A stretch of DNA of 64,000 nucleotides from Acidobacteriota bacterium (GCA_028876385.1 JAGWSF010000163.1:16921-80920), one strand, 5' to 3'. Positions 58,629 through 61,793 are shown, counted from the stretch's first letter. Numbers and translations: made by a program. The notes: a model not told the origin generated them from the letters alone.

Positions 58629-61600
58629 ATGAAAAAACGTCCACCGGCGCCTGGCGCACCGACCCTCACGACCCGCCTGATGGCCATATTGGCCGTTCTC
58701 GTGACCGTCGTCGCCGGCTTCGCCAGCTTCGCTCCCTCCGCTCGCGCCGCGACCACACCGGTTACTTACAATGCCACTGTCACCATCCCGGCCCCTCCCT
58801 CGTCGAGCTTCGCCGGGGCCGGTGGCGGTGGTGACGGCTGGGCGGTGGCCCTGTCGACCACCCAGATATTCAACGTCTTCCACCATCAGACCAGCCTCAT
58901 GGTCATGTGCCACAACCAGTCCGACGCCTCGGCCTGCTGGAGCAGCTACAAGACCGTCACCGACCTGTCGGGCAACGGGTTCAGCACCTCGGGCCAGCCG
59001 GGTCTCTACCTCGACCAGACCAGCCACTACCTCTACGTCTGGGCCACCCGCATGAGCGACAACACCGCCGGAGTCGTCTGCATCGACACCCAGTCGGCGG
59101 CGGCCAACCCGTTCTGCGGCTTCACCACCCTCTCCGCCGTCAACCAGGCCCCCTACTCGAGCTTCAGCGGCATCAGCGACCCGGTGATGGTGGGCAGCCA
59201 CTGGTACGCGTTCAACGCCGTGGCCGGACCGGCCTCGGGCAGCGAGAACACCCTCATGTGCTTCGACGTGTCCACCGACGCGGCCTGCGCCAGCCAGCCC
59301 TACCCGGTGAACTTCGGCGGTGGCTCGGTCTCCTCGGCCTCCCCAGACGACAGCATCGCCGCCCTCGGCACCAAGATCGTCCTCCAGATCCCGGCCAGCG
59401 TCCTGGCCTGCTTCGACACCACCACCAACTCGTCGTGCGCCGGGTCCTGGCCGCTGACCATTCCCGGCGGCACGGCCGGCGCCCCGCTGCCGGTGCTCAC
59501 CTCCACCGGGGCCTACGCCGGCGTGTGCCTGCCGACGTCGACGCCGCAGTGCTGGGACATGAGCGGCGCCACGCTGGCCGCGCCGGCCGGGCTGTCGGCC
59601 CTCACCGGCAACTCCAACTGGAACGGCCCGGCCACCGTGATCGGGGCCCGCATCTACTTCCCCAACGGCAACACCGACGCCGCCGAGTGCTACGACTACT
59701 CGACCGGCGCGTCCTGCTCCAACTTCCCGCTGGTCATCAACAACCTCAGCCTCCTCTACACCGTCAACCCCGACCCCAACCGGCCCACCTGCCTGTGGGT
59801 CAACGCCAACGGCGGTACCAGCCAGATCCAGAACTTCGACGCCTACACCGGGGGCACCTGCGCCAACGCCCCGCTGCGGCTCACCGCGTCGAGTGTCGTG
59901 GCCACCAACCAGGTCTGTGTCCCGGCCTCCTGGACCTCGCTGGCGGTGCTCAGCCCGTCGCCCAGCGCCTACACCAGCGGCACGGTGGCCTTCGATGACG
60001 CCGACGGCAATCCCATCTCCGGCGTCGCCACCCACAACCTCGACGCCACCGGCACCACCAGCCTCACCGACCTCAATCTGTCATCTACGGTGCCATTGCC
60101 GCAGTTCCTGGTGACACTCAACGGGACCACAGGCTCGCTCGGCACGGTGCAGATCCAGGTCACCTGGACCGGCTCCTACGACCCCTCCTGCGTGCAGGGC
60201 GGTACGGCGGTGACCACCGCCACCTCCCCCGGAGCGCCGAATACCCCCTCGGCGTCGGCCGGCGACGGAGCGGCCACGGTCTCGTGGACCCCCCCGGCCT
60301 CCGACGGTTACTCCCCCATCACCGGCTACACGGCCACCGCCTACGACTCCAACGGGGCCGTGGCTGGGACCTGCACCGCCCCGGGGAACGCCACCTCGTG
60401 TGTCATCTCCCCGCTGACCGACGGGAACCCCTACACCTTCACCGTCACTGCGAGGAACGTCATCGGTAGCGCTTCGAGCCTGGCGTCGCCGGCGGCCATC
60501 CCCCTCGGCCCTTCGATCACCACCACGTCGGTGGCGCCCGGTGACGTCGGCGCGGCCTACGACCGGTCCCTCGCCGTCACCGGCGGGGTCGGTCCCTACA
60601 CCTGGCAGCTCAACACCGGCACCCTGCCCCCGGGTCTCGGCCTCGGCACCGACGGCCACATCACCGGGAGCCCCACCACCGCTGGGAGCTATCCGGTCAC
60701 GGTGCAGGTCACAGACGCCAACGGCCAGACCGACACCCGGCAGATCACGCTGGTGGTCAACTCGACCACCACCCTGCCGCCCCTCCCCGTGAACATCACT
60801 CCGTCCGGCACGCCGGTCATCCAACAGCTGGTTCCCCAGGGCGGAACCGGCCCGTTCGTCTGGACCGTCTCGTCGGGGGCCCTGCCGCCGGGCGTAACGC
60901 TGAACCCTGACGGCACCTTCACGGGAACCTCGACCAGCCCCGGTACCTACTCCTTCACCGTCCAGGTCACCGACGCCAACGGCCAGACCGCCCTCCAGAC
61001 GGTGACCATGACCGTGCAGCCGTCCGACCTCAACACCCGGCCGATTGCCGCCACCCCCGACGCCAAGGGCTACTGGGTCGCCAACCCCAACGGGGCGGTA
61101 ATCCCCTTCGGTGACGCCAAGTCCTACGGCTCCATGGCCTCCACCCCGCTGGCCGCTCCGATCAAGGGCATCGCCGCCACCAACGACGGGCAGGGCTACT
61201 GGCTGGTCGGCGCCGACGGCGGCGTGTTCGCCCTCGGTGACGCCCACTTCTACGGCTCGGCCGTGGGAAGCCACCTGGGCGGCCCCGTCCTCGGCCTGAC
61301 CCCCACCCCCGACGGCAAGGGCTACTGGCTCGTCGGATCCGATGGCGGCGTGTTCGCCTTCGGTGACGCCGGCTTCTACGGCTCGGCCGTCGGCCTGGCC
61401 AAGCACGGCACGGTGGAGAGCCTGGCCGTCACCCCCGACGCCCACGGCTACTGGCTGGTCGGCACCGACGGCGGCGTGTTCGCCTTCGGTGACGCCGGCT
61501 TCTACGGCTCGGCCGCCAACATCCACCTGGCCGGTCCCGTCACCGGGATCGCCGCCACCAACGACGGCAAGGGCTACTGGCTGGTCGGCACCGACGGCGG

Positions 61601-61793
61601 CGTGTTCGCCTTCGGCGACGCCCACTTCTACGGCTCCCTCTCCCGGATCCAGCTGAACGGGCCGGCCACCGGCATCATCGCCAGCCCCGACTCACAGGGC
61701 TACTGGCTGGTCGCCAACGACGGCGGCGTGTTCGCCTTCGGCAGCGCCAAGTTCATGGGCTCCATCCCCGGCTGGACCCCGCCGGCGGCCTGA
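58629..61793 (+). CDS. Large secreted protein: signal peptide, Cys-rich N-terminal region, FN3, two putative-Ig (dystroglycan/cadherin-like) domains, six C-terminal GYWLV/DGGVF repeats
   Basis: Signal LMAILAVLVTVVAGFASFAPSARA. FN3 (VSWTPPASDGYSPITGYTATAY...YTFTVTARN). Two copies of G.YD..L.VTGG.GPY.W....LPPGL......G.I.G.PT..G.Y..TVQVTDANGQT. Confidence 0.85.
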   Translation: MKKRPPAPGAPTLTTRLMAILAVLVTVVAGFASFAPSARAATTPVTYNATVTIPAPPSSSFAGAGGGGDGWAVALSTTQIFNVFHHQTSLMVMCHNQSDASACWSSYKTVTDLSGNGFSTSGQPGLYLDQTSHYLYVWATRMSDNTAGVVCIDTQSAAANPFCGFTTLSAVNQAPYSSFSGISDPVMVGSHWYAFNAVAGPASGSENTLMCFDVSTDAACASQPYPVNFGGGSVSSASPDDSIAALGTKIVLQIPASVLACFDTTTNSSCAGSWPLTIPGGTAGAPLPVLTSTGAYAGVCLPTSTPQCWDMSGATLAAPAGLSALTGNSNWNGPATVIGARIYFPNGNTDAAECYDYSTGASCSNFPLVINNLSLLYTVNPDPNRPTCLWVNANGGTSQIQNFDAYTGGTCANAPLRLTASSVVATNQVCVPASWTSLAVLSPSPSAYTSGTVAFDDADGNPISGVATHNLDATGTTSLTDLNLSSTVPLPQFLVTLNGTTGSLGTVQIQVTWTGSYDPSCVQGGTAVTTATSPGAPNTPSASAGDGAATVSWTPPASDGYSPITGYTATAYDSNGAVAGTCTAPGNATSCVISPLTDGNPYTFTVTARNVIGSASSLASPAAIPLGPSITTTSVAPGDVGAAYDRSLAVTGGVGPYTWQLNTGTLPPGLGLGTDGHITGSPTTAGSYPVTVQVTDANGQTDTRQITLVVNSTTTLPPLPVNITPSGTPVIQQLVPQGGTGPFVWTVSSGALPPGVTLNPDGTFTGTSTSPGTYSFTVQVTDANGQTALQTVTMTVQPSDLNTRPIAATPDAKGYWVANPNGAVIPFGDAKSYGSMASTPLAAPIKGIAATNDGQGYWLVGADGGVFALGDAHFYGSAVGSHLGGPVLGLTPTPDGKGYWLVGSDGGVFAFGDAGFYGSAVGLAKHGTVESLAVTPDAHGYWLVGTDGGVFAFGDAGFYGSAANIHLAGPVTGIAATNDGKGYWLVGTDGGVFAFGDAHFYGSLSRIQLNGPATGIIASPDSQGYWLVANDGGVFAFGSAKFMGSIPGWTPPAA
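61041..61790 (+). repeat. Six tandem coding repeats with an exact 126-bp (42-aa) period
   Basis: The GGCTACTGG motif occurs at 61068, 61194, 61320, 61446, 61572 and 61698. Neighbouring units share runs of 44-46 identical nucleotides. Confidence 0.9.

Follow-up and report, generated by a model that had tools for sequence, protein, structure and literature searches.

The window analysed here, a stretch of 64,000 nucleotides from an Acidobacteriota bacterium (GCA_028876385.1, JAGWSF010000163.1:16921-80920), carries a plus-strand gene whose 1054-amino-acid (aa) product ends in six consecutive units of 42 residues. From the N-terminus the protein consists of a probable signal peptide, a region modelled as a propeller with a beta-sandwich, one fn3 domain, two He_PIG/PKD-like immunoglobulin-type (Ig) domains and the six-blade repeat module, after which the stop codon follows. 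The module, its fold and its probable role are the subject of this work. The gene and its repeat units are as follows.

58629..61793, plus strand: whole gene, 1054 aa (open reading frame (ORF) list and Pfam)
61041..61166, plus strand: repeat unit 1, aa 805-846, the most divergent, GYWVANPNGAVIPFGDAKSYGS; E 4e-17 with the hidden Markov model (HMM) of the unit
61167..61292, plus strand: repeat unit 2, aa 847-888
61293..61418, plus strand: repeat unit 3, aa 889-930; 61344-61389 is identical to unit 4 bases 61470-61515
61419..61544, plus strand: repeat unit 4, aa 931-972, a mosaic with its 5' core (61446-61489) equal to unit 5 and its 3' core (61470-61515) equal to unit 3
61545..61670, plus strand: repeat unit 5, aa 973-1014
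61671..61790, plus strand: repeat unit 6, aa 1015-1054; the protein ends here, without an extra closing strand

The sequence GGCTACTGG occurs on the plus strand at 61068, 61194, 61320, 61446, 61572 and 61698, at a spacing of exactly 126 bp, which agrees with the positions given in the first-pass annotation of this DNA. In total, 10 matches were found in the window as compared with 0.31 expected, and none of 100 shuffles reached 10. Three of the others (3027, 3417 and 3669, minus strand) belong to a second carrier gene, 2922-6251 on the minus strand, and the remaining one, at 54796, lies inside an unrelated ORF. The repeats are in frame inside ORF 58629-61793 and, cut at 61041 + 126n, give units that start at aa 805, 847, 889, 931, 973 and 1015. 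Each follows the pattern P/G-I-A-A-T-x-D-x-x-G-Y-W-L-V-x-x-D-G-G-V-F-A-F-G-D-A-x-F-Y-G-S, so that the 42-residue unit read at first was recovered. The accompanying description of six exact repeats holds for the period but not for the copies, whose identity is only 62-82% at the DNA level and 38-74% at the protein level. Tandem Repeats Finder reported a period of 126 with 5.5 copies and 74% matches over 61047-61741. Within 61173-61741 it scored a 252-bp period (83% matches) above the 126-bp period (74%), which hints at an older two-unit duplication; the pairwise identities of the units show no clean two-unit pattern. When the unit HMM was run over all six reading frames, only two carriers were found in the window, 58629-61793 (plus strand) and 2922-6251 (minus strand), with six units each.

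The AlphaFold2 (AF2) model of the module, built from a 73-sequence alignment, had a predicted local distance difference test (pLDDT) score of 95 and a predicted template modelling (pTM) score of 0.90. DSSP assigned 18 strands to this model, three per unit, corresponding to ..GIAAT.., GYWLV and GGVFAFG, and an irregular 16-residue segment, the FGDA.FYGS segment and linker, follows each third strand. The blades are therefore three-stranded and not four-stranded as had been proposed from the sequence. In a Foldseek search of the PDB all top matches were beta-propellers, the best being designer seven-bladed proteins with a template modelling score on the query (TMq) of 0.68-0.69, followed by WD40 proteins; the YVTN propeller 1l0q was matched with E 6e-9 and TMq 0.61. 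The structural likeness to WD40 proteins is generic (TMq 0.6-0.69, 11-19% identity), and the viral structure library BFVD returned generic propellers only. With TMq at most 0.69, the modelled fold would have no close structural family. The six-bladed beta-propeller foreseen in the first-pass annotation is supported by the AF2 scores, by Foldseek matches that are propellers only and by the unit counts given below, which are multiples or divisors of six. As modelled, the C-terminal module would fold on its own into a closed beta-propeller of six blades, each made of one 42-residue unit.

Whether the whole protein or only the module was searched, no Pfam, NCBIfam or PHROGs model reached threshold on aa 805-1054, and by sequence comparison the module belongs to no family in these three libraries. 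WD40, Kelch, NHL, PQQ, FG-GAP, LDL-receptor YWTD and PD40 had no Pfam match at E<=10 in either module of the window. Weak matches to DUF5818, DUF4988, L24e and RCC1_2 were rejected as short motif matches below threshold (PF01246 gave E 0.025 on the module), and spurious matches of this kind explain the database names 'ribosomal protein L24E' and 'YgdD membrane protein' on several members. The earlier statement that no named family fits is therefore upheld as far as library models are concerned, but RCC1 and YVTN, which it had ruled out, are the only remote signals. RCC1_2 (PF13540) scored 7.9 bits (E 3.9) with this module and 15.1 bits (E 0.02) with the second one, the cut-off being 22, and RCC1 (PF00415) was not listed for either module in the Pfam scan. 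RCC1 repeats form seven blades of ~50-60 residues with four strands each. Membership of RCC1 or RCC1_2 was rejected, as the scores are below the Pfam gathering threshold and the units are 42 residues long, six in number and three-stranded.

With phmmer, the module matched the YVTN propeller 1l0q_A among PDB sequences (E 7e-4), in register over five repeats. The family profile gave nothing significant against all PDB sequences, recovering neither 1l0q nor, at E<=1, BLIP-II; hence, the single-sequence match may reflect periodic composition. The YVTN-type models of NCBIfam and Pfam gave no match at E<=1. The Methanosarcina surface-layer protein 1l0q shares with the module a ~42-residue period, a blade start of the form P-x-G-[IV]-A-x-[ST]-P-D-G and, being a cell-surface protein, the pairing of a propeller with PKD/Ig domains, but it has seven four-stranded blades.

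Alignment of the family profile with BLIP-II (PDB 1jtd_B) by hhalign gave a probability of 62%, with a pairwise E of 7.5e-5 that is not database-corrected, and 28% identity over 209 columns with five repeats in register. The control, the unrelated six-blade lectin RSL, gave a probability of 0.4% and was rejected as a sequence relative. BLIP-II and the 'crinkly' repeats of plant CRINKLY4 are short RCC1-like repeats of ~39-40 residues that form seven three-stranded blades (PMC4617170). Repeats of ~39-42 residues with three-stranded blades (PMC4617170 and the AF2 model here) and the motif pattern aromatic-x-L-[AV]-x-x-DG-x-V-x-[AF]-[WF]-GD are common to these proteins and the module, whereas the number of blades is seven there and six in this family, and BLIP-II is a free-standing inhibitor while the module is fused to other domains and would serve in targeting. 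On these likenesses, the module is possibly a distant six-bladed relative of BLIP-II/RCC1-like repeats. Literature searches with motif strings and for propeller-type endolysin binding domains returned nothing relevant. In sum, neither of the outcomes named at first as refuting the propeller assignment, a confident match to a characterised repeat family or a predicted structure that is not a closed propeller, was obtained.

When 1.84 billion cluster representatives were searched exhaustively with HMMER, 18,982 proteins had E<=1e-3, of which 8,409 reached E<=1e-30, family members being counted as clusters at 50% identity; a word-indexed search gave at least 7,987 candidates. A scan of one genome per species yielded more than 597 loci, nearly all from Acidimicrobiales or Acidimicrobiaceae metagenome-assembled genomes (MAGs). 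The carrier MAGs come from soil and peat, and Acidithrix ferrooxidans (strain PY-F3, locus L021) is a cultured carrier. The count of the repeat suggested in the first-pass annotation thus stands at 18,982 clusters, almost all of Acidimicrobiales, and the fusion partners were also catalogued (see below). The module was further seen, at 54-56% identity, in contigs assigned to a Thermoplasmata archaeon (DAHVCH010000009.1, locus L008) and to Candidatus Dormiibacterota (DASYKI010000013.1, locus L053), which could be due to mis-binning or to horizontal transfer out of Acidimicrobiia. The numbers of units per protein were as follows.

First 120 matches and the two window proteins (n=122): 6 units in 99, 5 in 17, 7 in 6
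Cluster representatives (n=142): 6 in 110, 12 in 9 (and 5 more scored 11), 18 in 1, the rest 5, 7, 8 or 10
ORFs in genome loci (n=88): 6 in 85, 12 in 1, 4 in 2
IMG/VR viral contigs: 2 in 37, 3 in 37, 6 in 5, 12 in 2, none with 4 or 5

In cellular proteins, totals of 5 or 7 appear to be artefacts of detection, arising where unit matches were partial or split. Unit numbers are quantised, at 6, 12 and 18 in cellular proteins and at 2, 3, 6 and 12 in viral ones; complete viral ORFs include 34 with two units and 35 with three, and none with 4 or 5. These numbers are divisors or multiples of six, as a closed six-blade ring predicts. In the first set (n=122), 73 proteins have the module at the C-terminus and 44 at the N-terminus, and its occurrence at either end of its partners points to an autonomous domain. 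All six blades keep one motif throughout the family, with a blade identity of ~51-54% whatever the blade position.

The DNA of adjacent units contains long identical runs, 46 nt in units 3 and 4 (61344-61389 and 61470-61515) and 44 nt in units 4 and 5 (61446-61489 and 61572-61615), which the first-pass annotation had correctly located and had ascribed to gene conversion. Without any conversion, runs of 44-46 nt could also arise where the same amino-acid motif is encoded under strong codon bias, as in this genome of 71% G+C. The motif is indeed written in near-single codons (the chance of the same codon is 0.98 for F and 0.94 for Y), the second gene of the window shows no excess of identical codons (0.60), and family-wide the blades are about as alike between proteins as within them. 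However, the fraction of identical residues encoded by identical codons is 0.84 within this gene; it is 0.68 when the gene is compared with its paralog and 0.60 inside that paralog, and codon usage predicts ~0.5. Units 2 and 4 use the same codon at 26 of 27 positions with the same amino acid. In a GENECONV-style permutation of variable columns, the run of 22 concordant sites in units 3-4 was reached in none of 5000 permutations (P<2e-4), and that of 17 concordant sites in units 4-5 had P=0.003.

Comparison with the ortholog in MAG GCA_027391255.1 also bears on this question. In the repeats, 25 of 750 bases differ, and the differences are clustered: four lie within 13 nt of unit 3 (offsets 38, 44, 45 and 50) and all equal the unit 2 state, and three lie within 9 nt of unit 4 (offsets 71, 78 and 79), where the window has the unit 3 state and the ortholog the unit 5 state. 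From their sequence these clusters look like short conversion tracts that copy the state of a neighbouring unit, and codon bias by itself is a doubtful, though not negligible, explanation of the identical runs. The divergence at third positions from the ortholog (L081, 8356-9105) is 0.064 in the repeats, 0.143 in the N-terminal domain and 0.219 in the Ig region; the low value in the repeats could reflect codon constraint or the erasure of new mutations by conversion. The unusually high DNA identity among units 3-5 is attributed in part to recent gene conversion between blades.

Concerted evolution across the whole family was considered and rejected, as the nearest relative of a unit lies in the same protein for only 68 of 594 units. 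Blade identity is 0.538 within a protein, and 0.525 at the same position and 0.508 at different positions between proteins, values that are approximate owing to a crude column selection. As blades do not cluster by protein family-wide, conversion would be occasional and not the main cause of their likeness, which across the family appears to come mainly from selection rather than from homogenisation. The conversion proposed at first is hence supported among units 3-5, by the permutation test and the ortholog, but not as the family-wide cause of blade likeness.

The partners of the module in cellular proteins include a wall-related group (CHAP, NlpC/P60, 3D, an Rpf-like transglycosylase domain, M23, VanY and Amidase_6), many Ig-type domains (Big_3_5, fn3, TIG, PKD and DUF11) and, further, CAP, GH43, proteases of the S8, A4 and sedolisin types, a beta-lactamase domain (in one member), RHS and beta-helix proteins. 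Among the viral carriers (loci L089-L163, IMG/VR contigs), Pfam found an N-terminal Amidase_2 domain in 46 of 70 and GH25 in 2 of 70, and in many of them the N-terminal half matches PHROG endolysin families and the repeats are C-terminal. The viral repeats thus occupy the C-terminal site at which endolysins active on Gram-positive bacteria carry the wall-binding domain. The wall-binding domains described for endolysins have SH3b, LysM, CW_7, choline-binding and similar folds, and none described as a propeller was found in literature searches.

Viral genes with two or three units have a further feature. In 60 of the 68 complete ones, an in-frame Shine-Dalgarno (SD)-like motif and an ATG or GTG lie just upstream of the first unit, mostly 1-2 codons before it, the background rate being 0.09 expected per search window. 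The same test was positive in none of six viral genes with 6 or 12 units and in two of 54 cellular six-unit genes. An example is GAGGAGGAGGGCGCC-ATG in the gene 5572-6372 of locus L090, where the module gene lies directly after minor-tail and virion-structural genes. The window gene 58629-61793 is cellular, has all six blades and is without an internal start. In other endolysins, in-frame internal starts yield free wall-binding subunits that form hetero-oligomers with the full-length enzyme (PMC9430671, PMC4777826, PMC7098653). The viral two- and three-unit genes, in which use of the start is predicted, resemble such two-polypeptide endolysins (Lys170, CTP1L, CD27L, LysIME-EF1 and LysP7951) in having a C-terminal binding domain with an in-frame internal SD and start just before it. 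The internal starts in the two- or three-unit endolysin genes suggest free two- or three-blade subunits that complete a six-blade ring.

Phage GX15bay (MK557849.1) carries the module in a 1304-aa coding sequence (L164, 3666-7580) that lies beside a minor tail protein and is labelled 'glycoside hydrolase family 25'. The product may be a tail-associated wall-binding protein rather than an endolysin.

Taken together, the partner domains, the position in endolysins and the restricted taxonomic range, which suggests a lineage-specific ligand, make it probable that the module is a non-catalytic targeting propeller that binds the Acidimicrobiia wall, either peptidoglycan or a class-specific wall polymer; both wall binding and the ligand are deduced from these associations. 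In the producing cell it would hold secreted proteins on the cell's own wall, and the six blades with the same motif would probably give multivalent binding. The two genes in the window would then use it to anchor large Ig-rich surface proteins to the wall, the gene at 58629-61793 anchoring an N-terminal propeller, an fn3 and two Ig domains in a protein without a sortase signal. Phages of these bacteria would reuse the blades as the wall-binding end of endolysins, as two- or three-blade fragments with their own internal start. Full-length endolysins with two or three blades could then be complemented by free two- or three-blade subunits made from that start, and the fragments would oligomerise as 3+3 or 2+2+2 blades to close one ring. 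A fuller proposal, that this is a class-specific Acidimicrobiia wall-binding propeller and the first propeller-type binding domain in endolysins, which phages assemble by fragment complementation and bacteria use as a whole ring for general surface anchoring, is put forward more tentatively, as slightly short of an even chance.

The assembly proposed for phages has a parallel in the fucose lectins of the RSL type, in which three two-blade chains trimerise into a six-blade propeller (PMC11883740, PMC10306066). RSL and BambL (2bs5, 3zw0) share with the viral relatives described here, which carry exactly two or three blades, the arithmetic of assembly, and near-identical blades give those lectins multivalent binding. 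They differ in having another blade type with no sequence relation and in being free lectins not fused to enzymes, and the oligomers here are putative. For the cellular proteins, the nearest parallels are the SLH, CWB2, GW and LysM anchors, which likewise are repeated terminal modules in many unrelated secreted proteins of one lineage, are carried by autolysins and Ig-rich surface proteins and are borrowed by the phages of the lineage. The fold of these anchors is unrelated, and anchoring by the present module is suggested by its domain associations.

Several points weigh against the wall-targeting role. Wall binding is argued from domain associations, and ring closure and the location of the conserved residues are deduced from model scores, strand counts and unit arithmetic. 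Partners not related to the wall (cutinase-type, GH43, S8/A4 proteases and RHS) also occur, which are compatible with surface retention and also with a general binding module. The IMG/VR contigs are predicted viruses, with phage context examined at one locus (L090), and by Pfam the large 6- and 12-unit viral proteins show no catalytic domain. The GH25 label of the GX15bay protein was not used as evidence, since Pfam finds neither GH25 nor any other domain in it. Finally, C-terminal domains of endolysins can serve in oligomerisation and not only in binding.

In one rival reading, the propeller would be a general scaffold for protein-protein interaction or oligomerisation that does not bind the wall but assembles endolysin subunits and docks cellular proteins to an S-layer or membrane protein. 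Propellers are common protein-binding platforms, the best structural matches of the module include WD40 proteins, its partner domains are very diverse, and the internal starts of the two- and three-unit viral forms make it probable that the module also associates with itself. However, protein-binding propellers usually have divergent blades, and a single motif with ~51-54% identity between blades, as found here, is more typical of multivalent lectin-type propellers. The enrichment of peptidoglycan hydrolases and the wall-binding position in endolysins also point to the wall, and the scaffold is therefore considered unlikely. It is somewhat less likely still that the module binds carbohydrate polymers of foreign or environmental origin, such as plant, fungal or other bacterial glycans, and serves nutrient acquisition or adhesion. 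The degradative partners (GH43, peptidases and beta-helix proteins), the origin of the MAGs from soil and peat, and the fusion of the N-terminal domain of the window protein elsewhere to cutinase and GDSL lipase would fit such a function, but endolysins, which make up most of the viral carriers (Amidase_2), attack the host's own wall from within, and a family found largely in one bacterial class would suit a self ligand particular to that lineage. It is very improbable that the module acts like BLIP-II, inhibiting or binding penicillin-binding proteins or proteins of the beta-lactamase fold, and so directs its partners to the wall-synthesis machinery: the hhalign match (probability 62%, E 7.5e-5, 28% identity, five repeats in register), the three-stranded ~40-residue blades of both (PMC4617170) and the beta-lactamase domain of one family member speak for it, but the match is a weak one without database correction, seven blades are present in BLIP-II as against six here, no RCC1 or RCC1_2 score reached the Pfam threshold and BLIP-II was not in the Foldseek top 50.

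Under the wall-targeting role, the propeller is a known fold class, and wall-targeting modules and two-polypeptide endolysins are known kinds of function. The repeat family, the architecture of six three-stranded blades, its C-terminal use in endolysins and the arrangement of a fragment plus an internal start appear to be new. Acidimicrobiia are abundant in soil, peat and water and are rarely cultured, and, to our knowledge, the organisation of their cell surface is largely unknown. If thousands of secreted proteins share one wall-binding module, it would help in predicting the surface proteome of the class; the module could also serve to label or capture Acidimicrobiia cells and to assign hosts to uncultured phages. 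The blade arithmetic of 2, 3, 6, 12 and 18, combined with the internal starts, would represent a natural fragment-assembled propeller, which bears on protein evolution and design and on the emerging view of many endolysins as multi-subunit enzymes. At the least, the family merits a curated domain model.

The other parts of the gene 58629-61793 and the sequence that follows it are given below.

58629..58748, plus strand: probable signal peptide, MKKRPPAPGAPTLTTRLMAILAVLVTVVAGFASFAPSARA, then ATT; read from the translation (basic N-terminus, hydrophobic core, A-x-A)
58746..60218, plus strand: N-terminal domain, aa 40-530, no Pfam model
60237..61028, plus strand: Ig spacer, one fn3 and two He_PIG/PKD-like Ig domains (Pfam)
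61809..61847, plus strand: hairpin 16 nt past the stop codon, 15 bp, G+C-rich, without a T-run; RNA fold -40.1 kcal/mol, z = -3.35

As judged by their sequence, the N-termini of both carriers in the window are probable signal peptides. In the 1054-aa protein Pfam found nothing on aa 1-530 and nothing reaching threshold on aa 805-1054, and between these regions it assigned fn3 (PF00041) to aa 537-614 with E 8e-12 and He_PIG/PKD-like (PF05345) to two stretches within aa ~640-800 with E 1.9e-20. No sortase-type C-terminal signal is visible in the 1054-aa sequence. The N-terminal domain (aa 40-530) contains seven regularly spaced Cys pairs (C.D..t...C) and has at least 480 homologs, which elsewhere are fused to cutinase, peptidase A4, GDSL lipase and fn3. 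Its AF2 model (pLDDT 88.9, pTM 0.87) is a seven- or eight-bladed propeller with a beta-sandwich, and Foldseek matched it to Tako8, BamB, YncE and tetrathionate hydrolase. With a propeller model at the N-terminal end and the repeat propeller at the C-terminal end, the product would be a large secreted protein with a propeller at both ends.

The ortholog in MAG GCA_027391255.1 is 91% identical over the whole protein, is called as a gene of 1035 aa and has different flanking genes. The repeat module is 97% identical, as compared with 91% for the whole protein, and on these identities purifying selection on it is strong. The hairpin at 61809-61847 probably ends the transcript and is of the actinobacterial type; a consensus promoter and terminator scan gave nothing useful near the gene and did not report this hairpin.

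The second carrier gene of the window, 2922-6251 on the minus strand, encodes a 1109-aa secreted protein with many Ig-like segments, which ends in the second module.

2949..3701, minus strand: second six-unit module, at the C-terminal end of the 1109-aa protein; six units with E 5e-12 to 3e-22

Downstream of this carrier, 95 bp away and likewise on the minus strand, is a gene (568-2826) for a Hanks-type Ser/Thr kinase (HRDVKPEN and DFG). The kinase carries a single transmembrane segment and an outer tail rich in Pro and Thr, lacks a sensor domain, and may be linked to the second carrier in an operon or functionally. At the other end of the window, the membrane-protein-like ORF 63188-63934 (minus strand) contains a short tandem repeat (63405-63493, periods 15, 20 and 30) that encodes repeated G/D/A/R-rich segments.

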